Source of the DNA: a virus
Lineage: Duplodnaviria > Caudoviricetes
Strand: one strand, 5' to 3'
Length of the DNA: 64,000 bases
IMG/VR virus record: IMGVR_UViG_3300021431_000107
Coordinates: 18,741 to 82,740 of that record
The translations under genes and the position numbers were made by a program. Below, piece after piece: positions 50,219 through 63,392 of the stretch (its first letter is position 1; each line of letters begins with the position of its first letter). The notes under the pieces were generated by a model. That model had not been told where the DNA came from. It was given only the letters and a program-made list of their open reading frames with translations, and ran no database searches.

Positions 50219-51964
50219 TCACTCAAATAAATCTTTGTTAAGTTTATAGGCAATAAATGCATCCATCATGGCAGCCACGTTATCAATCTTCTGATCAGCA
50301 CGAAGTTTACGAAGCTTTCTATTGCCATTAGTGTCTTCAATCGCAACACAGTTTTCCATACAGAACTGCATAAGCTGCTCATCAAATAAAAGGAGCCTGT
50401 CCTCAGCAAGTTTCTTTAACTCGCCAAGAGGTACAGACTCTGTCTTTGCTCCCTGTATTACTTTCTCAAGTCCAAATGGGCCGTTTTCCTGTTCCCATCT
50501 CTGCACAAACTCTCGTGCATTATATGGGTCAAACCCAAAGGATCTAACATCATACTGAAAATCCATAATATGCTTATCGAGATCCTCATAAACTTCCATC
50601 ATATCAAGAACCGTTCCTTCAAGTACAATAAGCGTTCCTTCTTCAATAAACTGATCATACTTAAATCTCATGGCACCTGGAAGTTTCATAAGTGTGTTGC
50701 TCGTAATGTATGACCTGACCTTAATTCCAAACTTCCCATAGCCAAGAGGGAATAAGAATGTAAAGGCGCAGAAGTCATCACCTCTGGATAAGTCGGCTCC
50801 CATAGAGCAAGGCATCTGCCAATACTCTTTCTTACGATGAGGAAGTGTCTCTTCATATGTAAAGAAGTACGTAAAGCCTTCAGACGGAATACCGAATCTC
50901 TTAGCCAGGATATCGTTTCTGGCTGAAGGAGAATGTTCTGCCTTTTCAACATCCATTCGATAGGCTTCCTCGGATACAGTCTTCCCGATATTCGGATTTG
51001 CCTTAACCCACATCTTAGGATCTGCAACTTCCTTTACATCATCTAGCCTATAGTACCAGATCGATACGTGAGGATTGATGTAGTCGCCTTTCAGGATGTC
51101 GATTAGTTCCATCTTGATATTATCCCCAGGACCGTTTCGTACAGTTCCTTCTGATGAAACAGCAAGGATAAGATAATCTGGTAATTTCGAAGCACCCTGT
51201 TCAATGGCACCGATAACATCTTCACGAATTGCTCCAGAAAGCCACTCATCAACTGAATTCACTTTGGTCTTAAGACCCTGTAACTTATCAATAGTCATAG
51301 GCCTAATTTCAAGAAGTGATCCCGTAAAGAAGTTTTCGATTCCTTTCTTAGTGGAAGCAAGATGAACTCGATTTGCTTTAGATCCCGTAGTATTATGGAT
51401 AGAACCAGCGGTTAAGAATTTAAAGAACGGACCACGAGCTCTCACAATAGATGTACGAATAGGCTGAAGAACTTCTTCTGCAAGTTTCATTGTAGGAGCA
51501 GTCGTAATCTGATGAGTAGTGGATGGATCGACATTTAAGAAGTAACTCTGAATTGTTGAAACATAAGTCGATTTTGAAGCGCCTCGACCAATTATTAGAA
51601 ACTGCTTAAGTGTGAGCCTCTTCTTAACAGTCTTCATCACATATCTTCCGGGCTTACCATCTGTACCCGGCTCGTATACCGACTTTTCTATAAAGTAATA
51701 CCACCCGAAAATCTCTTCAGCCCAGAGTTTAAACGTGTCAAGAAGGAACATGTCGGATCCATCAGTAAGTGTTAGCTCATTTTCACAGTAAGCGATCCAA
51801 CCGTCTATTGCCTTCTCGTCGTAGTAATAAATCGGACTTTCTATAAGTTTATCAATCCGATTCATCTCTAGCGAAATGTACTCATTCACCGGTATTTCTC
51901 CGCGTATTACAGCCTCCCGGAACTTGCCGTAATATTTAGGGGTTGCGGTATTAGATAGAGCCAT
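50219..51964 (-). CDS. terL: Terminase large subunit
   Basis: Walker A IGRGASKS, Walker B SVDEW, nuclease MGADLS...KIDNVAAMMDA. Confidence 0.95.
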   Translation of the reverse strand: MALSNTATPKYYGKFREAVIRGEIPVNEYISLEMNRIDKLIESPIYYYDEKAIDGWIAYCENELTLTDGSDMFLLDTFKLWAEEIFGWYYFIEKSVYEPGTDGKPGRYVMKTVKKRLTLKQFLIIGRGASKSTYVSTIQSYFLNVDPSTTHQITTAPTMKLAEEVLQPIRTSIVRARGPFFKFLTAGSIHNTTGSKANRVHLASTKKGIENFFTGSLLEIRPMTIDKLQGLKTKVNSVDEWLSGAIREDVIGAIEQGASKLPDYLILAVSSEGTVRNGPGDNIKMELIDILKGDYINPHVSIWYYRLDDVKEVADPKMWVKANPNIGKTVSEEAYRMDVEKAEHSPSARNDILAKRFGIPSEGFTYFFTYEETLPHRKKEYWQMPCSMGADLSRGDDFCAFTFLFPLGYGKFGIKVRSYITSNTLMKLPGAMRFKYDQFIEEGTLIVLEGTVLDMMEVYEDLDKHIMDFQYDVRSFGFDPYNAREFVQRWEQENGPFGLEKVIQGAKTESVPLGELKKLAEDRLLLFDEQLMQFCMENCVAIEDTNGNRKLRKLRADQKIDNVAAMMDAFIAYKLNKDLFE

Positions 51965-53091: not shown

Positions 53092-53475
53092 TTACTCCTC
53101 CTCTGTCTTGTAAATCCCGTCCATTGAGATATCGTATAGTAATGTCCTCTCTGCTTCACACTGGAGACGGAACTCGTACTCAGCGGCTTGCTTATTTAGT
53201 TCATCGACAAGGAAGCCGTTTGACGGTGGATCAAATAATAATTTCACCTTGATCGGGACATACATTTTGATTAGAGCAAATCTGCCAGTAGGATCGAAGT
53301 CTTCCCATGTGGCAGTTTCATCTTCTATCGTAAATGGCTCATCCGGTCCTACGCCTAACTGATTCAGGATTGCAAATGCCCCGTTAATGTAGTCGATGAT
53401 TTGTGAATCAAATACTTTATACTCAGGGAGAATCCCACTGAGCTTCTCTTTCACTGAATTTAGAATACTGTCCAT
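53092..53475 (-). CDS. Head-tail adaptor-like protein
   Basis: MDSILNSVK...LNQLGVGP...VKLLFDPP...EYEFRL. Confidence 0.65.
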   Translation of the reverse strand: MDSILNSVKEKLSGILPEYKVFDSQIIDYINGAFAILNQLGVGPDEPFTIEDETATWEDFDPTGRFALIKMYVPIKVKLLFDPPSNGFLVDELNKQAAEYEFRLQCEAERTLLYDISMDGIYKTEEE

Positions 53476-53715: not shown

Positions 53716-55248
53716 TTAATCTGAAATAATATTACTTAAAAGATCAAACGGCGCAGGACTATTAGACGTGTATGATGTATATGCAACCGTTCCGCCATTT
53801 GATTCTTTAACTATTCCGTTTCTATTAGCATCGATTATGCAAGCCTGATAGTTACTAGAGGTATATCGAATAATTCGATACCAATTAGTAAAGAACCCGT
53901 AATTGTTTTGATTGACCAGCACAGCTCCTCTAATTTCAGAAACAGTATCCATGTAGTCAAACGCATTCTGACATAGAGTATCGACTATGCTAGTCCAATC
54001 TGCCCCGGTAATAGAAGGCAACCAAACTCCGTCACTTGACAAATCATCTGTTCCACTAATAATAGGTATGACGTCACTCACTTTTATAACATACTTGTTG
54101 CTTTGCGATGAAAACATTTTAAATGCCATGAATTGTGTACCAGAATTATCAATGTCTGCTATTTCTGGTGTAAAGCAAACTATAGCTTCCATCTCTATTG
54201 GTTCATTTACAACCATATCAGGCATTGTGTTTGCATCACGTCTCCAGAAAGTATAGTCTAATGGTCGCAAACAAATAGCGGGAAATATCGTTCCGATAAT
54301 TGCCGCATCGGTATACATAAATGTGAACTTAACCAAATATGTATCCCATTTTTTAATTTTACGATCTAAGAACAGTGTCCGCATTGTTGAACCACTATTA
54401 TAATCAACTCTGGATCGTAATGCGCTAACGGGCTTTGATACTGAATAATACGGTAATATTTTGGCCATTCCAACTGGTATTCTAGAATAGCCAATAATCG
54501 TATCGGCATATGTATCAGTGATATCTCTTACACGAACCGGATAAGTCGTGTTATCTGGAGAGCAATCGACTATCACATGATGCGCAAATCTGCCGATTCC
54601 AACATATATAGCACAGTGAACTATTTTTTCAAATCGGCTGCTGTATTCTTCCGCATCACTTTTAAAAAACACTACATCTCCAGGTCTAAGGGATTCTAGA
54701 TTGTATTTGTTAACTTTATGGAACAAACCGATATCATTCAGATATCCAGCAAACTGCCATGTTAGCAACCTACTCCAATTCAAAGAATCAGGTAAAGTTC
54801 CTCTATTGTTTGGATTAGTGTATACTGCATATTTGCAATACTCTTTTTCAAGATACGGAAGGCTCGCTTTAGGATATTTTGATTTATTAGTCTTGTCACC
54901 AAATATCGATTCATCGAAACCGATCCCATATAAGCACATCATAACGAACGACATGCAATCTAAAGGATATTTATTATCAACAACTGTTCCATCTTTAACA
55001 TCGCTGACAAGAGTTACAACACCGTTCGAATAATTGAAGCTATTAGGATTTCCAGCATTACCGTAATACAGTTTATCGTTATTATCGAGCCACGTTTTTA
55101 CGCATTTAAAAATACCAAGGTTATTGCACGTACTTTCCGAGAATCCGTATTTGCTAACAGAAACAGGCATGTATTCTCTCGCCGCTTTATCCACAATCTC
55201 AAACTCTTTGCCACCAGCTACGAATGTGCTCATAGGTTCTTTAGGCAT
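53716..55248 (-). CDS. Spike-type protein with NlpC/P60-like peptidase domain
   Basis: LDCMSFV...LRPGDVVFF...HCAIYVG; N-terminal EIVDKAAR. Confidence 0.65.
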   Translation of the reverse strand: MPKEPMSTFVAGGKEFEIVDKAAREYMPVSVSKYGFSESTCNNLGIFKCVKTWLDNNDKLYYGNAGNPNSFNYSNGVVTLVSDVKDGTVVDNKYPLDCMSFVMMCLYGIGFDESIFGDKTNKSKYPKASLPYLEKEYCKYAVYTNPNNRGTLPDSLNWSRLLTWQFAGYLNDIGLFHKVNKYNLESLRPGDVVFFKSDAEEYSSRFEKIVHCAIYVGIGRFAHHVIVDCSPDNTTYPVRVRDITDTYADTIIGYSRIPVGMAKILPYYSVSKPVSALRSRVDYNSGSTMRTLFLDRKIKKWDTYLVKFTFMYTDAAIIGTIFPAICLRPLDYTFWRRDANTMPDMVVNEPIEMEAIVCFTPEIADIDNSGTQFMAFKMFSSQSNKYVIKVSDVIPIISGTDDLSSDGVWLPSITGADWTSIVDTLCQNAFDYMDTVSEIRGAVLVNQNNYGFFTNWYRIIRYTSSNYQACIIDANRNGIVKESNGGTVAYTSYTSNSPAPFDLLSNIISD

Positions 55249-55351: not shown

Positions 55352-55585
55352 TTATTCTTCTGTTTCATTTCCTTCAGCGGTTGTAAGACTCTTATTGTAC
55401 CCATGAGACGAAATCATGAGAATGGCACCAAGCAGAGTATCGATTGCCATGATGGTTCTACTGATCTCGTCACCAAGTGGAAGATTCCAGATGCCAGCGA
55501 TTGTTACATAGAAAGTAGCAAGAGCAGGCAGTACAATCTGGGCGATAAATTTAAGGATGTCGTATACTTTATTACTCATTTTCAT
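55352..55585 (-). CDS. Holin (Dp-1-like)
   Basis: MSNKVYDILKFIAQIVLPALATFY...IDTLLGAILMISS, two TM segments; dual start MKM. Confidence 0.85.
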   Translation of the reverse strand: MKMSNKVYDILKFIAQIVLPALATFYVTIAGIWNLPLGDEISRTIMAIDTLLGAILMISSHGYNKSLTTAEGNETEE

Positions 55586-55910
55586 TGTTTGGATCCTCCG
55601 GCATGGCAAGCAATTTGTTGTAAAGGCTTGTAGCTACATCGTTTCCGCCAAGTTTATGATATGCGGCATATACACGTTTCATACTGTCCTTTGCATAAAT
55701 TGGACAGAAACCTTTCTCTAAGTACTTATTGTAACCGTTCACAATTGATTCTCGAAGCAAGCTCTGTACACCTTCAGCAATGGCCTCATTTCGCTTCTTC
55801 TCTTCTGAAAGCTTCTTTAGAACACTCCTATAGCCAAAAGCAGCAATTCCAGTGATGATAGCGAAGAGCCATTCAATCCAGTGAAGAGACACGTAATTTA
55901 CAATTTCCAT
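55572..55910 (-). CDS. Holin-associated membrane protein
   Basis: N-terminal TM segment; GVQSLLR...YHKLGGN motif. Confidence 0.7.
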   Translation of the reverse strand: MEIVNYVSLHWIEWLFAIITGIAAFGYRSVLKKLSEEKKRNEAIAEGVQSLLRESIVNGYNKYLEKGFCPIYAKDSMKRVYAAYHKLGGNDVATSLYNKLLAMPEDPNNENE

Positions 55911-55919
55911 ATAGCCTCC

Positions 55920-56450
55920 TTACTTATTTTGAAATTTCTCTTGTTCTTCTATAATGGAGACAATATCGAAGTCCATGGCTCTTTTAGATAGAAGTTCCTG
56001 TCTTGCGAATGTGAGTTCCTTTTCGGCGTCAGATAAGAACTTCTTAACAAAGAACGCTGCATCTATTTCACCCATGTCGTAAAGGTTCCTAAAGGCTTCC
56101 GAGTATACTTCAACAGCTTCTGATTCCCAGTTAATCCATTCTGTAAGAGCCGCTTCAAGTGCCTGACGCCTAACATCCGGAGTTACGGATTCTCTCGAAG
56201 CTTCTTTCCAGGATGGTGGAATCACTTCTGGATCTTCTACTCTTTCCGCCTGAAGCAGAATCGAATAGTGCTTCGATGCATACTTACAAAGCTTTATATA
56301 TCCTTTCGTTTCGGATAGGTAATGCTTTTCATGTAAGTGTGCATAGCCTTTAAGTCCCAAGAACAGATACGAATTCATAAGCTGCTCATGGGTCATCATG
56401 CCTTTAACCATGTGAGATGCAAGTGCTGTGAACACTTCTCTAATAGACAT
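55920..56450 (-). CDS. Ferritin-like four-helix-bundle protein
   Basis: Helical pattern H...E...WE.E....Y...GE..AA.F...D.E.E. Confidence 0.55.
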   Translation of the reverse strand: MSIREVFTALASHMVKGMMTHEQLMNSYLFLGLKGYAHLHEKHYLSETKGYIKLCKYASKHYSILLQAERVEDPEVIPPSWKEASRESVTPDVRRQALEAALTEWINWESEAVEVYSEAFRNLYDMGEIDAAFFVKKFLSDAEKELTFARQELLSKRAMDFDIVSIIEEQEKFQNK

Positions 56451-56489
56451 AAATATTGCCTCCACTATAATTAGTTACTTTTTTACTGC

Positions 56490-56888
56490 TTAGTAGTTTT
56501 CAAGAGTGTCAATAGCTCTATCGATTGCTCTCATAGATCTTTCATCCGGAGCATCATGTCTCATGTCTTCAAGTCTACTAACCATACGATCAACTGTAGG
56601 AGCATCAGCACGAGACACGTATCTACCGGTTGTTGCTGATCTTCCACGCCTCATGGACACGTCTGGCATGTGATCGTAGTGTCTCATGGATCTCATAGAG
56701 TGCGGATAGTATCTTTCAGAGTACTCATCTTCATCCAACGATGACATGTCACAGATTTCGTTGATCATCTCAATAGCTTCAAGAGCTTTCTTGGCTGCTT
56801 CAGCATCAGTCGGGGTGAGTTCTCCCTTTTTGTTAATCTTCTTAATCTCCTCAAGATAGAGGTCTTTTAAGTTCTCAAGTTCTTTCAT
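56490..56888 (-). CDS. Helical protein with RGRS..GRYVSR motif
   Basis: ORF in cluster; GGAGGGTGA RBS. Confidence 0.75.
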   Translation of the reverse strand: MKELENLKDLYLEEIKKINKKGELTPTDAEAAKKALEAIEMINEICDMSSLDEDEYSERYYPHSMRSMRHYDHMPDVSMRRGRSATTGRYVSRADAPTVDRMVSRLEDMRHDAPDERSMRAIDRAIDTLENY

Positions 56889-56905
56889 GTCTTCTCACCC
56901 TCCTC

Positions 56906-57352
56906 TCACGCTTCTCTTGAAACAACAAGGTTCGCATTTTGAATGTTAATAGGAATCGCAGGTGCGTCACCTGCTGCCACGTTTTCAAGTGACAGATTAA
57001 AGCAGCATCCAACAGGAACAGTAATGTAAGCCGTAGACGTTACATTAAAGTACTCATCTACTGCCGCCGGGGTTACGATGGCTCTGCTCGTCCGAATAGG
57101 TTCACCATCGATAGCAAACGCTACAGCAATCGCCTGGGCAGTCTGACCTGTCGGAACAGCAATGTTACCGTTAAAAGTTACTCTGTATCGTGCAAAGGAG
57201 GAACAAGGATTATTAACGATGCCTCTTAGAATTACAATCCCGGATTCATTTCGATGGAGTACGTACCTCTTAGTGCAACCGATGGAAGTATTAAAAATTG
57301 CAGCTTCAGAAGGTGCTACAGTCTGAATCGGGTTATAGGTAAATTCTGCCAT
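56906..57352 (-). CDS. All-beta Cys-containing protein, BclA C-terminal/C1q-like
   Basis: YRVTFNGNIAVP...AIDGEP...FNVTSTAYITVPVGCC..LSLEN. Confidence 0.55.
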   Translation of the reverse strand: MAEFTYNPIQTVAPSEAAIFNTSIGCTKRYVLHRNESGIVILRGIVNNPCSSFARYRVTFNGNIAVPTGQTAQAIAVAFAIDGEPIRTSRAIVTPAAVDEYFNVTSTAYITVPVGCCFNLSLENVAAGDAPAIPINIQNANLVVSREA

Positions 57353-57368
57353 GGTAATGCCCCCTTAC

Positions 57369-58100
57369 TTACATGCCGCATCCACAACCGAAGTTCTGAT
57401 TAGGGCAGCAATTGGGGTTCTGAACGACGTAAGCAGGAATGGCTGCAGGATTGATTCCCTGAATGATCTGTCTGGTCTGAGCTTCCTGAGAAGCGGCAAG
57501 AGATGCCATGTTAAGCTGAGTCTGAAGATTCTGGTTCTGAGTCTTAAGATTCTCAATCTTCTCCTGACAGATATCATCACGAATAGCCTGGATGCCGTTA
57601 TTCACAGCATTGAGGACTGCCTGTGTATTAGCATTATTAGCAGTCGTAACATCAAAGAGAGCATTCGTGACAGCCTGACGATCCGCGCATGCTTCCGTAG
57701 CAACCGTGTACTTAAGATCAGCAAGTCCCGCACGGTTCTCACAGCAGCAGTTCTGAAGTCCCATAGAAACCTGATTAAGAGACTGCAGAATGTTTGCCTG
57801 AGAATTGCATCTGGATACTTCAGCGTTTGCAAGAGCAGTGTTAATGCCATTGATGCCGCCCATGACTGCCTGCTGATCGAATCCTCTCTGCACATCGTTG
57901 TTCGTGGTGTTATTCATAAGGAAAGGCATAGCACCGTTTCCGTTGTTACCATAGCCCCAGCCACCATTCATGAAACCAAACAGGAACAGAACGAGTAACC
58001 AGAAAGAGCCATCGCCCATTCCCATTCCATAAGAATTGCCGTAACCATTCATAGGTCCGACAGGCATTACCATATTACTTCCATCGTTTACAAGAGACAT
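57369..58100 (-). CDS. Gly/Asn-rich protein with hydrophobic segment, long coiled coil and CCC/CC/CGC motifs
   Basis: FWLLVLFLFGF; QNCCCENR; PNCC..CGCG. Confidence 0.85.
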   Translation of the reverse strand: MSLVNDGSNMVMPVGPMNGYGNSYGMGMGDGSFWLLVLFLFGFMNGGWGYGNNGNGAMPFLMNNTTNNDVQRGFDQQAVMGGINGINTALANAEVSRCNSQANILQSLNQVSMGLQNCCCENRAGLADLKYTVATEACADRQAVTNALFDVTTANNANTQAVLNAVNNGIQAIRDDICQEKIENLKTQNQNLQTQLNMASLAASQEAQTRQIIQGINPAAIPAYVVQNPNCCPNQNFGCGCGM

Positions 58101-58569
58101 AATTACTCCTCCTTGTAGTGCTCATTTTTGGTTTGGGAAAAGGATCTGGTAAAGGTAAAGTAAAATGCTGTTGAATGATAGTGCACAATATATAGTATGT
58201 TCAAAGACGCAAAAGCCTTCTGTTCTTTAAACTTAGTCTTATTGGTAGCAAATTAGATCCTTTTCCCGATTAAATAGTTACAAATTATTCAGTTGTTTTT
58301 ATCCTTTAATTCTATTGCATAGGAATGCTTTTTCAGGAATGTTTCTATTTTGAAATTTCTCTGAACTTTTCACATGAAAGGATGTAAATAAAAAGAAGCT
58401 AAAGACAAGTTAATGCGGCCGCTGATTAACAAGACTTAGCTTCTTTTCTATTTCTATATTCTGTTTTAGTTCCACACGAGGTTATTCAGTTGTCCCAGAT
58501 GTTACAGTAAAGTGTCCGGTGGAGTTGTCATTTGAGTAACCTCACTTTCTGTTAGATGATGTTAATTAG

Positions 58570-60123
58570 TTAAGTAATTGTCAAAGTTCCAGATAATTGT
58601 GCATTTACATCGATGTTGTTTACGTTATCAATCCATGCCTCGCCATTACTTCTTAGTATAAGCATGTGAACAGTATTCGCATCCGTTGCAATAGTGAATG
58701 TAATAGTACAGTTATTGGTATTGATTGTAGTAGAAGTACCATCAATATCCTTAACATATTGACCGTTATACCGTATTACTATAGTCCCGCTAAACCGAAG
58801 ATTATTGGCAGTAATACTTGCATCAAATACTTTAGGCAATATGCAACAAATGTCAAGTTGCTTACCGCTAGAGGTTATATATCCAGGAACTATAGCATCT
58901 TTTATTTTTATGCTAGTGTCGGCGCCTTTTATATAAGTGTTACTCATATTTTCCCATGCTTTAAACGTAAAAGATTGTGTTGAATTATCATATGAAAAAA
59001 GTCTAGTTATGCAAATAGTATGTGATACATAATTTGCATCGATTATCTGACGTATAGAATCCGTTCCGATAACGAGCACGTGCATAGAAAATCCGCTATA
59101 AGTATATGGACAATTTAACAAAGTGGCCGATACGTTACTTGAAGTGCTGGTGTATTTTCCAGGAACAACATACGAATTCAGATCGGCTCCAGATGGAATT
59201 ACCTCGCCCGTTAAATATGGGTGACAATCTTTTATCGCTCCTATTTTTGTGGATGGTAAAACCTTTGTTACCGTAAAACACATTTGACCGCCAATTAGAT
59301 ATAGAATATCGCCAACCATGAAAACGCCTTCTATTTCGTCGCTCGCATTATAACCCTGCATACTAACGTTTTTTAATAATTTTCCAGTATCCTTGTCATA
59401 AAGGCACAGCGAATGCGTATATGCTTTTCCATTTCCATATGATAAGTTTACAATCAAAAGTTGTCCAGAATAATAACATCCGCACTGAACTAACGGAGTA
59501 TATTCATTATCTGTGTCAGCCATCGGAGAATAATTAACACTTGAGATTAAATTAAATTCGCTGTCGTATTTTTGTATGGCAGTATAAGAAGCGGTATAAA
59601 ATAGATTGGAATCCGAATCATAGCCTATAACCCAGTTACATGGGTTACTAGAATCTATTGCAGTTGGCTGTAGAGCAATAGAACTTTCAACTTCTAAAGT
59701 ATCTGCATCTACTATAGTTACATAATTTTTATATGTCGATTGTATGCCTGTCAGAACGTAATACTTATTGGTATTCTCATTATACGTAATATCATTAGCA
59801 TGTCCCAATAGTGAATCGCCTATTACTTTTCTGCCTTTAACAGTCAGCATATCCGCCATGTCAATACGAACAAGCATACAAGATGTGTCATCAGAAGATA
59901 CTAAAGCAATTACATACTCATCACTATTAGAATTATATGCAGCACCCTGAAGCCCAGTATGAATGCCATCATTTTCTGCAAATATACTTTTCTGCCCGTA
60001 TATACTTAGTATTCGTTCTCTTGTATAGCTGTCAAAAAAGCTGCTTTTTTCTCTCTCCTTCTTATCCACAATCTCATATGTATCATCGCCATGTATCATA
60101 TGGTGCATTATTTTATTAGCCAT
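58570..60123 (-). CDS. Receptor-binding-like protein (beta-propeller-like plus C-terminal beta domain)
   Basis: LQGAAY, GHANDITYN, QCGCYY, EIEGV blades; GADLNSYVVPGKY; N-terminal YEIVDK. Confidence 0.6.
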   Translation of the reverse strand: MANKIMHHMIHGDDTYEIVDKKEREKSSFFDSYTRERILSIYGQKSIFAENDGIHTGLQGAAYNSNSDEYVIALVSSDDTSCMLVRIDMADMLTVKGRKVIGDSLLGHANDITYNENTNKYYVLTGIQSTYKNYVTIVDADTLEVESSIALQPTAIDSSNPCNWVIGYDSDSNLFYTASYTAIQKYDSEFNLISSVNYSPMADTDNEYTPLVQCGCYYSGQLLIVNLSYGNGKAYTHSLCLYDKDTGKLLKNVSMQGYNASDEIEGVFMVGDILYLIGGQMCFTVTKVLPSTKIGAIKDCHPYLTGEVIPSGADLNSYVVPGKYTSTSSNVSATLLNCPYTYSGFSMHVLVIGTDSIRQIIDANYVSHTICITRLFSYDNSTQSFTFKAWENMSNTYIKGADTSIKIKDAIVPGYITSSGKQLDICCILPKVFDASITANNLRFSGTIVIRYNGQYVKDIDGTSTTINTNNCTITFTIATDANTVHMLILRSNGEAWIDNVNNIDVNAQLSGTLTIT

Positions 60124-60134
60124 TTATGCACCTC

Positions 60135-60368
60135 CTACTTCATGGTGTTCTGAAACTGCTTGGCTAATTGACTCAGCTGATTAAACTGTTCCTGTGTCAT
60201 CTGGCCAGAGTTTAGAAGCTGCTGAACCTGTTGCTGAGGATCGCCTTGGAACTGAGATTTAAAATTCCTGAACTGATTCAGCATATTAGAAAAGTTAGAA
60301 AAAGGACCGGGCATCCCACCATTTTGAAATTGGCCCTGATTTCCGAATCTATTAAAAAACGGATTCAT
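60135..60368 (-). CDS. Gln/Asn/Phe-rich small protein
   Basis: GDPQQQVQQLLNSGQMTQEQFNQL. Confidence 0.8.
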   Translation of the reverse strand: MNPFFNRFGNQGQFQNGGMPGPFSNFSNMLNQFRNFKSQFQGDPQQQVQQLLNSGQMTQEQFNQLSQLAKQFQNTMK

Positions 60369-60378
60369 TCATAGCACC

Positions 60379-60846
60379 TCACTTTTCAAGAGCTTTATTC
60401 ACAAGTTCCTCGACCTTGGCTTCAAGATCCGACGTCTTCACATACTGACTCATGTCTTCGTGCATTGGAAGCTGATTAGACTGACTGTAGCCCTGTGTTG
60501 CTACAACAGTTTCACGTTTTACAAGATCATAGGTCTCAATCGGAAGCGGGCGGCCTGATGCGTCGGTAGACTTCATGTAAAGGACAGGAGCATCAGAGTC
60601 CATAAGAAGGACTGATACTCCTGCTGCCACCGGATATGCTTTTGCGCCAGCTTCTCCCTGCACCCATACGAATCCCTGCGTTCCACCGCCTTGAGAATAC
60701 GTCTGATTCATCTGATTCATCGGCATCTGAGCCTGAGCGTACTGCTGATTCGGATAATATTGCTGAGCGTAAGGCTGCTGATATCCAGTGTTATAGCCGT
60801 TATTCATACCGTTTGCTTGATAATTCCCGTAATTATAGTAAGGCAC
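60379..60846 (-). CDS. Protein with Q/N/Y prion-like N-terminus and a small globular domain
   Basis: MPYYNYGNYQ...QQYYPNQQY; WVQGEAGAKAYPV...LLMDS...YMKSTD..GRP. Confidence 0.8.
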   Translation of the reverse strand: MPYYNYGNYQANGMNNGYNTGYQQPYAQQYYPNQQYAQAQMPMNQMNQTYSQGGGTQGFVWVQGEAGAKAYPVAAGVSVLLMDSDAPVLYMKSTDASGRPLPIETYDLVKRETVVATQGYSQSNQLPMHEDMSQYVKTSDLEAKVEELVNKALEK

Positions 60847-60847
60847 T

Positions 60848-61243
60848 TTAATCTATCTCCTTTCGCCAATAATAGGATGCGACTTCGTTTCCTGAGTCCC
60901 AGATATCGTAATAGTCGCCGTCTCTTACTGCGACAACATGACCTCCGGATTCGTAATTCACTATCACAAGCAGATAGGTTCCAAGCGGATGGTCAATACA
61001 GAAATCTTTCACTGTATAACAAGAAGGGCAGGTATCTGGTAAGATGTGCTTCTTAAAGCCTTTCTTTATCAGGTACTCTGCCCAAATGTAATTGTATTCT
61101 GGCATGTCGTGGTAGGTTATACACTCAACCGCTATGCCTATAAAAGTAGTTTCCCAGTCCTCGTCCGTAACAAAAGATACTGCTCGAATTACGCAGTCTG
61201 TTGTAGTTCTTTTATCTGGGTTCATGTTTAGATATTTAAACAT
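60848..61243 (-). CDS. Phage hypothetical protein (Cys/His; possibly peptidase-like)
   Basis: DCVIRAVS...GHVVAVRDG.YYDIWDSG. Confidence 0.75.
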   Translation of the reverse strand: MFKYLNMNPDKRTTTDCVIRAVSFVTDEDWETTFIGIAVECITYHDMPEYNYIWAEYLIKKGFKKHILPDTCPSCYTVKDFCIDHPLGTYLLVIVNYESGGHVVAVRDGDYYDIWDSGNEVASYYWRKEID

Positions 61244-61370: not shown

Positions 61371-62951
61371 TTAGTTTTTCAGAAGCTTATTCACTTCATT
61401 TTGAATTTCCTGATAATTCTTGTAACCGGCTGCTGCCAGATTCTTTTCTCTATCAGGCTGATTTCCCCATTTACCTGCGAGCACCTCTTTCGCAAGCTCC
61501 ATAACGGATTTTGCTGTTTGCTTTTTCGACATTTCAGATAAAAGGACGCCCCAGGTTCTAGGACCGCAGATGCCATCTACATACAGACCATTGCTATTCT
61601 GGAAAGAGGTAAGAGCGGCATAAGTTTTATTTCCGAAGATACCGTCTACTGCTAAGTTAAAGCCAATCGTCTTAAGGCAATACTGCATATAAGTGACAGA
61701 AGGACCATCATCTCCCGTTCTAACCATTCCAGTAGAAGGAGTCGGAACCACTTCTTTCACCGGAGAAGCAGGAACCTGAATGGCAGGAGTCGTCTGTACT
61801 TCTTTTGCTTTAGATGCTCCGTATTTAGGCTGTGCGTAGCCTCTAATATAGCCGTTACCTACAGTGATGGAACGAATAGCAACAGAGTCTTTATAGTTGC
61901 CCTCAATTACTTTGATTGTCTTGCCACTTACAGATTTCACAATGCCGATGTGATCGGATGCTCCGTTATTCGGCTGCGTTGCTTTGTCCCAGTTATAGAC
62001 AATAATGTCTCCAGCTTTAGGCGTAATAGTACCATCTTCGTTCCAAATACCAGCTTTCTTAAAGAGCGATACATGGTTTTCAACACCACACTCAGTTCCA
62101 CCGATAAGATAAGTAGCATTCAGCTTGATGAAGACAGCAGACACAAACGTATCGCACCAGGAGTCTGTATATGTTACTTTATAACCTCTCGCAAGAGGCT
62201 TATGGTCGTTATACGTATCAATAATTACTTTATGAGAGCCGTCTGATTCTTTTTTGCCAAGCCAAGCTTCAGCAGTTTTAATTACATCAGACGCTGTAAC
62301 AGTTACTTTGCTCACAGGCGTTTCCTCCTTAGTTTCTTTTTTCTCGTCTTCGTATAGAGTATAGAAAACATCGGCATCGTATCCACCGGTTAAGCCAACA
62401 ACTTTACCTTTCCATGAATACTGCCATCCGACTCCATAACTTGGTCTTAAGTTTTCATGAATAGTTCCATCATCGTTTTTCTCTTTAGGAACCGAAGCAA
62501 TCCAGAAATCGTATTTTGACTTAGCTGATTCTGGAATCAAATTTTTATACCAATCTTTAGTACAGTAAATTCCAAACTTGTATCCAGCAGACTCAACTAC
62601 CTCGCGAAATGCTTCAATAATGCCTTCCATCTGTTTTCGTGTAAATGTCTCTTGTTTCTTCCATTCGAGATCGATCCACACAGGAAGATCCAGATGTCTT
62701 CCGTTTAATGTGCTAATAACATCTTCTGCTTCTCGTCTACTTTCGGTAGAATTATTCGCGTAAGAGTACCTATATACTCCTACCTTAAGACCTGCCTTAG
62801 TGGCATTCTTATAGTTAGTTTCAAAGAATTTATCAATTCCGTAGAGCTGAGTAACTCTTATGATGACAAATTCTATGCCTTTAGCTTTTGCGAAATTCGG
62901 TGTGCCGTCATCGGAGCATATATCAATTCCGAAATAATATTTCTTTGCCAT
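61371..62951 (-). CDS. Endolysin: GH25 muramidase + CHAP + peptidoglycan-binding + Cpl-7-like domain
   Basis: GIDI...VGVYRYSY...WIDLE; WCDTFVS...DHIGIV; VDGIFG..T; AKEVLAGKWGN. Confidence 0.92.
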   Translation of the reverse strand: MAKKYYFGIDICSDDGTPNFAKAKGIEFVIIRVTQLYGIDKFFETNYKNATKAGLKVGVYRYSYANNSTESRREAEDVISTLNGRHLDLPVWIDLEWKKQETFTRKQMEGIIEAFREVVESAGYKFGIYCTKDWYKNLIPESAKSKYDFWIASVPKEKNDDGTIHENLRPSYGVGWQYSWKGKVVGLTGGYDADVFYTLYEDEKKETKEETPVSKVTVTASDVIKTAEAWLGKKESDGSHKVIIDTYNDHKPLARGYKVTYTDSWCDTFVSAVFIKLNATYLIGGTECGVENHVSLFKKAGIWNEDGTITPKAGDIIVYNWDKATQPNNGASDHIGIVKSVSGKTIKVIEGNYKDSVAIRSITVGNGYIRGYAQPKYGASKAKEVQTTPAIQVPASPVKEVVPTPSTGMVRTGDDGPSVTYMQYCLKTIGFNLAVDGIFGNKTYAALTSFQNSNGLYVDGICGPRTWGVLLSEMSKKQTAKSVMELAKEVLAGKWGNQPDREKNLAAAGYKNYQEIQNEVNKLLKN

Positions 62952-62960
62952 ATCTTTACC

Positions 62961-63392
62961 TCATTTCCAGGGGCATGTATCGTTTGGTTTTCGCTCAATT
63001 GGATTCTGATAGAGAATAGATTCGTCAGAATAGTGAATAGCGTCATGAGTTCGTTTGCAGGTACAGATTAGGAACTCTGGATTCAAGAGATTATCTGTCT
63101 TGTTTGCGATATCATTGATAAGAAGTGGATTCATATGGTGGACAAGGATTCGTCCAAAGATTTCACGGTCCTCACAAGCAAGATCACATCCCATGTCTCT
63201 CGTGATGACTTCAGTTCTCACATTCTTCCACTCAGCAGAATGGTAGAACGCTTGGTTTAGGTATCTGTCGAACCCAAAGGACTCTTCGCCTATGGTTCCT
63301 TTAAGTTCCAAGTATCTGAATCGCTCTTCAAAGGTTGGAAGTGTGATAAGTTCACTATAAGTCCTAATCACGAGTCTCTTCCTCCTCGACAC
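62961..63392 (-). CDS. HNH endonuclease (packaging-associated)
   Basis: RDMGCDL...VHHMNP...NLI.C..THDAIH. Confidence 0.85.
   Translation of the reverse strand: MSRRKRLVIRTYSELITLPTFEERFRYLELKGTIGEESFGFDRYLNQAFYHSAEWKNVRTEVITRDMGCDLACEDREIFGRILVHHMNPLLINDIANKTDNLLNPEFLICTCKRTHDAIHYSDESILYQNPIERKPNDTCPWK

Follow-up and report, generated by a model that had tools for sequence, protein, structure and literature searches.

What is encoded by the block of small genes that separates the endolysin from the holin in the genome of the tailed virus IMGVR_UViG_3300021431_000107 (Duplodnaviria; Caudoviricetes), and does it belong to this virus alone? The stretch analysed here, referred to as the window, comprises the last 64 kilobases (kb) of this 82.7-kb IMG/VR record, rated as complete by CheckV, and carries nearly all of its genes on the minus strand. 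A first-pass annotation, made from the sequence alone, had pointed out in it seven co-oriented open reading frames (ORFs), interrupted by one further gene, and had proposed that they form a protective matrix or fibre shielding virions or infected spores of an anaerobe from oxygen. All seven ORFs were found on the minus strand where they had been placed, together with the interrupting gene, and the block does separate lysin from holin, with a GH25/CHAP endolysin upstream and a Dp-1 holin downstream. Its core, however, consists of six genes and not of seven, the ferritin-like gene at its end being rare in related loci. We propose, with a confidence that stays somewhat short of even, that these six genes encode a late-made, protease-matured and self-contained stalk-and-head assembly, which would be released at lysis. 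The genes of this cassette, named hereafter by the length of their products in amino acids (aa), and the two boundaries of the block are as follows:

61371-62951, minus strand: endolysin, 526 aa, upstream boundary of the block; Pfam Glyco_hydro_25 (9e-27), CHAP, PG_binding_1 and CW_7, and PHROG endolysin families
60848-61243, minus strand: cassette gene 1, 131 aa, papain-fold cysteine peptidase-like protein (phrog_3754)
60379-60846, minus strand: cassette gene 2, 155 aa, Q/N/Y/P-rich N-terminus and conserved core (phrog_21718)
60135-60368, minus strand: cassette gene 3, 77 aa, Q/N/F/M-rich (phrog_22984)
57369-58100, minus strand: cassette gene 4, 243 aa, putative stalk protein (phrog_16490)
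56906-57352, minus strand: cassette gene 5, 148 aa, predicted stand-alone C1q/TNF-like jelly roll (phrog_20016)
56490-56888, minus strand: cassette gene 6, 132 aa, helical ends and variable R/G/S/Y-rich middle
55352-55609, minus strand: Dp-1-type holin, 85 aa, downstream boundary of the block; Pfam Phage_holin_Dp1 (3e-22) and PHROG holin families

Five of the block ORFs fall into PHROGs labelled as of unknown function (3754, 21718, 22984, 16490 and 20016). Pfam, NCBIfam and PADLOC returned no family for any ORF listed for the block itself, and megablast of the region against phage records gave no match. The PADLOC defence models, run on ten proteins at E ≤ 0.1, returned 0 families, and a known defence system was rejected on this ground.

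Synteny and position of the cassette

To what extent is the block shared with other phages? Two sets of loci, obtained independently of each other, were compared. The viral set comprised the best 80 loci of an IMG/VR search with the 148-aa protein, to which Butyrivibrio virus Ceridwen and a lemur-gut phage were added (82 in total); the genome set comprised the best 80 loci of a scan of GTDB species genomes with the family profile of the 243-aa protein. The order 131-155-77-243-148-132 is held in nearly all of the 82 viral and 80 genome loci. In the former, tblastn places the 243-aa gene directly upstream of the 148-aa gene in 81/82, preceded, in order, by the genes of 131 aa (73/82), 155 aa (66/82) and 77 aa (39/82), and a clustering of all ORFs recovers the divergent 132-aa family as the next gene after the 148-aa one in 65. 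The genome loci present the same order, with the 148-aa gene in 71 of the best 80, the 131-aa gene in 66, the 155-aa gene in 65, the 132-aa gene in 64 and the 77-aa gene in 60. The tightest link is that between the 243- and 148-aa genes, by adjacency in the viral set and by co-occurrence in the genome set.

Chance clustering of the genes was rejected because the synteny holds across 162 loci, and the earlier statement that similar clusters occur in other gut phages without an assigned function is borne out by the survey. The core unit is one syntenic cassette of six genes and ~2.3 kb. Its members diverge to different degrees, as indicated by the median pairwise identities over 189 locus pairs: 72% for the 148-aa protein, by far the most conserved, followed by 55% for the 131-aa, 47% for the 77-aa, 46% for the 243-aa, 44% for the 155-aa and 37% for the 132-aa proteins. 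The high conservation of the 148-aa protein fits an oligomer or lattice under constraint.

In most loci, the endolysin is followed by a small membrane protein, a 70-aa helix-turn-helix (HTH) protein and the cassette, after which come either an integrase in opposite orientation or early genes (SNF2 helicase, Gam). In the lineage of the window the cassette lies between endolysin and holin, and in another one between an HNH gene and the genes for the connector and the large terminase subunit (TerL). Each of the three positions belongs to a late operon, and the phages among which the cassette moves differ in lysins, terminases and neighbours. The small membrane protein (~90 aa, single-pass) and the HTH protein (~70 aa) occupy the interval between endolysin and cassette in ~30 loci (e.g., L001:6463-6859 and L016:5563-6059), and both are absent from the window. 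In 2 of 7 members tested, the HTH protein scores above the Pfam cut-off for sigma-70 region 4 (26.5 and 25.6 bits vs 24.1), and it is a possible dedicated activator of the cassette. Furthermore, about one tenth of the loci (L154, L160, L111, L114, L152 and L169) contain 1-3 kb of extra DNA within the cassette, at various points.

Could the module then be a moron, i.e., a lysogenic-conversion unit by which a prophage would display stalk and head on the host surface, for superinfection exclusion, receptor masking or cell adhesion? Its usual site at the very end of the late operon, beside an oppositely oriented integrase (15 loci), would suit such a role, as would the small sigma-70 region-4 HTH gene just upstream in ~30 loci and the cassette of Ceridwen, bounded by predicted terminators and placed after a gap suited to a promoter of its own. 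Conversely, five of the six cassette proteins lack an export signal, the cassette of the window and of its relatives is part of late operons, where it lies between endolysin and holin or ahead of TerL, and the authors who published on Ceridwen consider it virulent. The stalk family extends to crAss-like phages, which are not known to integrate. Moreover, the module is uncommon in cellular genomes: it occurs twice on contig C22 of the isolate Butyrivibrio sp. INlla21, with stalk genes at 111403-112143 and 192297-193058, ~80 kb apart, which suggests two prophages carrying it; beyond this isolate, it was detected in 2 of 300 other genomes of the same family and in 0 of 400 others of the phylum. 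With no PADLOC defence match either, we regard a role in lysogenic conversion as quite unlikely.

The 148-aa protein and its predicted likeness to BclA and ExsF

What could a late, self-contained module of this kind build? A first indication comes from its most conserved member, for which the annotation had suggested a likeness to the C-terminal domain of BclA or to C1q. Structure prediction agrees with it: the AlphaFold2 model of the 148-aa protein (pLDDT 92) is a C1q/TNF jelly roll of ten strands, and its best Foldseek match in the PDB is 9h38, the F-BclA C-terminal domain (E 4e-7). VIA-align superposes it on this domain with Z 17.2, a root-mean-square deviation of 1.9 Å and 21% identity over 125 residues, followed by the BclA C-terminal domain (Z 15.2), BxpB (Z 14.9) and ExsF (Z 14.7), and, at Z 12-14, by C1q and TNF proteins; EDA falls, together with BclA and these, within Z 12-15. 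In BFVD, the model lies nearest to stand-alone proteins of phages, 130-145 aa long, of which two already bear the name “BclA protein”. At the sequence level, Pfam, including BclA_C (PF18573), returned no family for this protein at E ≤ 0.1, a profile of 46 of its homologues found no match among PDB sequences at E ≤ 10, and the NCBIfam exosporium leader matched none of the cassette proteins.

The C-terminal domains of BclA and F-BclA, as well as ExsF (BxpB, ExsFA), belong to the exosporium of the Bacillus cereus group and have the C1q/TNF jelly-roll fold in common with the model. Like ExsF, the 148-aa protein stands alone and measures ~150 aa, and, as with BclA and ExsF, it would be made in the cytoplasm without a signal peptide. 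On the exosporium, ExsF trimers dock the proline-rich leaders of BclA-type filaments, and the leader of BclA is cleaved off (PMC12357932). A cut leader and a proline-rich docking peptide, which that system uses (PMC12357932), would be further points of likeness to the module. Unlike BclA, the phage protein lacks both the BclA_C match and the collagen repeats, being reduced to the domain, and its partner is helical and Cys-rich, not collagen-like; unlike BclA and ExsF, it comes from phage genomes, some of them of phages whose hosts do not sporulate.

C1q/TNF-like domains also cap known phage fibres, and two of these, the short tail fibre of cyanophage A-1(L) (Z 12.3) and the tail complex of cyanophage A4 (Z 12.5), match the model. 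Stalk and head might accordingly be an ordinary virion part, an accessory tail or head fibre that binds a receptor, with the other genes acting as assembly chaperones. Tail-protein-like genes lie within or beside the cassette in the lineage of the window, and in a predicted archaeal virus the stalk gene stands beside genes for a tail protein and a reverse transcriptase, both of which would agree with this possibility. However, the same cassette is carried by phages with unrelated terminases and lysins, which is unexpected for a part fitting one virion; the head is the most conserved protein (72%), the opposite of a receptor-binding tip engaged in an arms race; and the hydrophobic plug of the stalk has no counterpart in known fibres. 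A plain virion component appears to us improbable.

The 243-aa protein as a putative stalk

If the 148-aa protein is a head, to what could it be attached? Its constant neighbour, the 243-aa protein, belongs to a family of 2,804 clusters at 50% identity (E ≤ 1e-3), whose features were counted on 150 representatives and, for the hydrophobic core, on 126. The N-terminus is a conserved peptide of ~32 residues, usually containing GG, a pair which precedes the hydrophobic core in 114/126. This core has a median length of 12 residues, is flanked by Gly, Asn and Trp, and has no K/R within 15 residues in 93/126. Next come a helical region whose length varies, with CCC in 120/150, and a Pro- and Cys-rich C-terminal end, present in 118/150. 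Both ends are conserved and the middle ranges from 200 to 370 aa, which is what a spacer would be expected to show. The hydrophobic segment and the Cys motifs that had been noticed in the protein of the window (CCC and a CC...GCGCG tail) are indeed present and kept across the family; as for the long coiled coil attributed to it, the searches gave weak matches to coiled-coil proteins only. The family profile found no significant match among PDB sequences, and the ESM Atlas model is uninformative (pTM 0.26). Weak matches to influenza HA2 were also obtained (E 0.12-1, not significant), and it is probably from these and from the coiled-coil matches that the “spike protein/glycoprotein” labels on the crAss-like homologues stem.

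A 215-aa open frame on the plus strand (57351-57998), antisense to the 243-aa gene, recurs in many loci; rather than a gene, it seems to be a side effect of the Q/N/A-rich codon make-up.

The putative stalk protein, with its Cys residues, its Pro-rich end and a helical rod that comes after a hydrophobic N-terminal segment, recalls spanins and class I viral fusion proteins, and its gene, as that of spanins, is often near lysis genes. This leads to a different explanation, in which the module is a membrane-acting lysis accessory: the hydrophobic segment would enter the cytoplasmic membrane, perhaps after cleavage by the 131-aa protein, and would aid or time lysis in the manner of a fusion protein, a spanin or a disruptor. 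In most loci the cassette is beside or within lysis cassettes, a crAss-like phage has its stalk gene ~1.2 kb downstream of holin and lysin, and the cytoplasmic membrane is common to all host phyla seen; the layout itself, with its Gly-rich hydrophobic segment, Cys cluster in the rod and Pro-/Cys-rich end, and the HA2 matches point the same way. The latter, however, do not reach significance, and a core of ~12 residues, without flanking basic residues in 93/126, is short for a typical membrane anchor. Spanins are dispensable in monoderm hosts such as Butyrivibrio, and the stalk has no lipoprotein partner: in a test for two-component spanins, no cassette translation was found to start with a signal peptide and lipobox, and the full cassette is carried by a phage of monoderm Butyrivibrio. 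Moreover, this explanation leaves no role for the TNF-like protein or for the three low-complexity proteins, and some cassettes are far from lysis genes, between an HNH gene and TerL or beside recombination genes. Action on the membrane is, in our opinion, rather unlikely.

Peptidase-like and low-complexity proteins

What, then, would the remaining members contribute to a stalk-and-head assembly? In the 131-aa protein, C17, H102, D113, N6 and N8 are invariant in 39 homologues, in which a CPxC motif is also found; C17, H102 and D113 follow the papain order, and N6 and N8 might provide the oxyanion hole. Of the top 50 VIA-wide matches of its AlphaFold2 model (pLDDT 93), nearly all are papain-like enzymes (Z 7.7-4.2), the best structures being the C39 domain of PCAT1 (Z 7.7), the peptidase domain of ComA (Z 7.0), Josephins and staphopain. 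With Foldseek, no match reached E ≤ 0.001 or even fell below E 0.02, no Pfam family was matched, the C39 model included, and the family profile had no significant match among PDB sequences. On the evidence of the model, this is a small papain-fold enzyme, closest to the C39 double-glycine peptidases.

With the C39 peptidases of bacteriocin exporters (PCAT1, ComA, LahT) the 131-aa protein would share the papain fold and the Cys/His/Asp residues, and the Gly-Gly run in the N-terminus of the neighbouring stalk protein adds to the likeness. It differs from them in that its family is stand-alone (~125 aa), without fusion to an ABC transporter, and carries the additional CPxC motif, and in that its position is taken by an HExxH protein in the crAss-like variant of the module. 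A dedicated protease is part of both versions, papain-like here and apparently a zincin in the distant variant. Homologues of the 131-aa protein also occur alone, in Tsamsa-like phages of Bacillus, in Geobacillus phage GBK2 and in Lak megaphages; the gene neighbourhoods of those of the Bacillus and Geobacillus phages gave no clue to their role.

The other three proteins (155, 77 and 132 aa) each combine a low-complexity tract with a short conserved part. When the 97 ORFs of the window were ranked by the Q/N/Y/G/M content of their best 40-aa window, the 155-aa protein came 1st (0.80), the 243-aa protein 2nd (0.65) and the 77-aa protein 4th (0.57), in agreement with the low complexity described beforehand, and the 132-aa protein ties for the top on R/G/S/Y content. 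The conserved part of the 155-aa protein is a core of ~55 aa (WVQGE.GAK.Y.V..... L.DS....Y.KS.D.SG.P); that of the 77-aa protein, composed of 23% Q, 14% N and 14% F, is a C-terminal motif (dP...vQ.llnsgq.sQ.q.n). The 155-aa protein has no Pfam or PDB match, and none of the three matched anything known. Inspection of the cassette translations revealed no signal peptide or lipobox, which fits assembly in the cytoplasm and release by lysis.

Hosts and variant modules

Is the module tied to endospores, as the first-pass annotation had supposed? The full cassette is present in Butyrivibrio virus Ceridwen, isolated on Butyrivibrio fibrisolvens, a non-sporulating species. The stalk family extends to a cultured phage of Bacteroides uniformis, many crAss-like phages, a Clostridium perfringens phage and viruses assigned to Methanomassiliicoccales, predicted archaeal viruses. 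Since non-sporulating bacteria are among the hosts, a spore-specific role was rejected. Among 50,697 phage records, all matches with a recorded source or host trace back to gut, rumen or faecal material or to gut-associated hosts belonging to several phyla, with the exception of the stand-alone peptidase homologues of the Bacillus and Geobacillus phages. Metagenome-assembled genomes labelled Methanobrevibacter, Saccharibacteria and Prevotella possibly contain mis-binned phage contigs and were not used as proof of host range.

Outside the full cassette, variant modules surround the stalk homologue in Bacteroides phage C3_41T2LP (L083:4647-7892), in the crAss-like cr116_1 (L084:4836-7320) and in C. 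perfringens phage HMD-PC1 (L085:4025-6893). Downstream of the stalk, all of them encode a small beta-rich protein that contains Cys, together with further small ones. At the place of the papain-like peptidase, cr116_1 has the HExxH protein, and C3_41T2LP carries a gene annotated as PolyVal metallopeptidase; the C. perfringens phage, in turn, encodes proteins clearly analogous to those of 155 and 77 aa, and one weakly related to the ferritin-like protein (E 0.005). In Caudoviricetes sp. vir215, whose assigned host is Methanomassiliicoccales, a stalk-family gene (L086:3878-4759) lies just downstream of reverse transcriptase and tail protein genes.

A possible stalk-and-head assembly

How could these elements act together? 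We propose that the module is an autonomous late-gene unit, whose product would be built in the cytoplasm and freed by cell lysis. The 243-aa protein would be the stalk, whose helical rod varies in length and separates a hydrophobic plug flanked by glycines from a Pro-/Cys-rich tail at the opposite end, and the 148-aa protein a trimeric head or anchor docking on one of the conserved stalk ends, much as ExsF/BxpB trimers dock the proline-rich leaders of BclA-type proteins on the exosporium. The 131-aa peptidase would trim one of the components, most likely the N-terminal peptide of the stalk at its Gly-Gly run, and the three low-complexity proteins (155, 77 and 132 aa) would serve as glue, scaffold or matrix, the ferritin-like protein being an optional extra of one lineage. 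The product could be a fibre, nap or matrix that, whether free or attached to virions, acts outside the cell in the gut, with persistence, clumping or adhesion as possible roles and no tie to spores. The protective matrix or fibre initially imagined would be compatible with the evidence.

Several observations weigh against this proposal. Our confidence in it does not reach even because we infer all of its protein-protein contacts, and equally the cleavage, location and role, from the gene block, its conservation, two predicted folds and features of the sequences. Trimer formation by the 148-aa protein is assumed from its fold family, and the fold matches of the 131-aa protein are middling (Z < 8). 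A purely extracellular fibre does not explain the 12-residue hydrophobic core, which may mean membrane insertion, and the gut and rumen are reducing, so that disulfide cross-linking may not occur there. The moron position beside the integrase, seen in 15 loci, fits a lysogen-expressed function too. Comparison by hhalign of the 148-aa profile with the beta-rich stalk partners of the Bacteroides, crAss-like and C. perfringens phages showed no similarity, and these partners therefore cannot be called TNF-like. Finally, no literature on the module was found, the Ceridwen paper included, and no proteomics.

A broader and more speculative picture, which we hold as unlikely in its entirety, is that tailed phages infecting gut anaerobes of different phyla produce, at a late stage of infection, their own spore-surface-like structure, made of a cross-linkable stalk, a BclA/ExsF-like head and prion-like proteins with a dedicated protease. 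After its release by lysis, such a structure would coat virions, clump them or tether them for survival and travel between animals, as a phage counterpart of the exosporium nap or of an occlusion matrix.

Independently of its role, we rate the cassette as a real and widespread module, in which recognisable folds are combined with orphan proteins and which fits no described kind of phage system. The head family exceeds 7,500 clusters at 90% identity and the stalk family amounts to ~2,800 at 50%, and all the members found of both sit in PHROGs of unknown function. The maintenance of a six-gene order across phages with differing virion and lysis genes, in a unit that extends to several phyla of gut hosts, points to a phage activity outside the current models, namely packaging, structure, lysis, lysogeny and defence. 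Should the product be an extracellular structure, it would bear on the persistence and spread of phages of strict anaerobes; should it act on the membrane, it would add a step to lysis. The module is directly testable, since Ceridwen, which carries the full cassette, is cultured, and variants exist in C3_41T2LP and in the C. perfringens phage.

Ferritin-like gene, insertion and flanking genes

What remains to be placed are the genes of the block that fall outside the six-gene core and those that flank it:

62961-63392, minus strand: HNH endonuclease
58570-60123, minus strand: inserted gene of 517 aa, weakly tail-protein-like, not a member of the cassette
58101-58569, minus strand: non-coding gap of 469 nucleotides (nt), after the 517-aa insertion
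55920-56450, minus strand: lineage-specific seventh gene, 176 aa, ferritin-like four-helix protein by prediction
55572-55910, minus strand: 112 aa, N-terminal hydrophobic helix, possibly a lysis accessory; phrog_4105, function unknown (3e-22)
53716-55248, minus strand: 510-aa protein, weak NlpC/P60 match
53092-53475, minus strand: head-tail connector protein
50219-51964, minus strand: TerL

The ORF of the ferritin-like gene (55920-56465) would give 181 aa, and its likely true start at Met6 gives 176 aa. The ferritin-like fold previously assigned to it is supported at the level of predicted structures only: the ESM Atlas model (pLDDT 0.84) reaches a TM score of 0.81 to two PF00210 ferritin clusters, both sides of the comparison being predictions. 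With this superfamily the model shares the topology of a four-helix bundle, and the family conserves H21/E22, H40, H43, E47, E109 and E145, i.e., His and Glu residues on all four helices; the spacing of these putative ligands differs from the canonical E / ExxH / E / ExxH of ferritins. Two of 29 relatives match PF00210 weakly (best E 4e-4), the protein of the window does not match it, and PDB sequences gave no match to either the family profile or the single sequence. The gene occurs in about 3/82 viral and 1/80 genome cassettes; among 14 loci of its family, it directly follows the 132-aa gene in 11 and is itself followed by the 112-aa gene in 10. It is a lineage-specific, optional seventh member, and because it is optional, the oxygen shielding that had been put forward was rejected as the core role of the module. 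A C-terminal motif (K..AMDFDIVSI.EEQ) is strongly conserved in the ferritin-like family and could be a docking or targeting peptide; most members, but not that of the window, continue from it into a basic tail.

The position of the 517-aa gene is empty in most related loci, and none of the 162 has a homologue of this gene there, which is why it is considered an insertion; the genes inserted in other cassettes are not homologous to it. Its product has a weak PHROG minor-tail match. In the 469-nt gap that follows, a long hairpin with a T-run was read by eye and not flagged as a terminator by the scan; a consensus scan found a promoter-like TTGAAC-18-TATCAT at 58204-58175, ahead of the 243-aa gene, whose ATG at 58100 is preceded by a strong AAGGAGG ribosome-binding site. 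The NlpC/P60 match of the 510-aa protein stays below threshold (20.4 bits vs a cut-off of 23). This protein and the 517-aa one have only their first ~25 residues in common (G..YEIVDK..RE; BLASTP E 0.003), and this N-terminal motif may be a common attachment peptide of two different tail-associated proteins.

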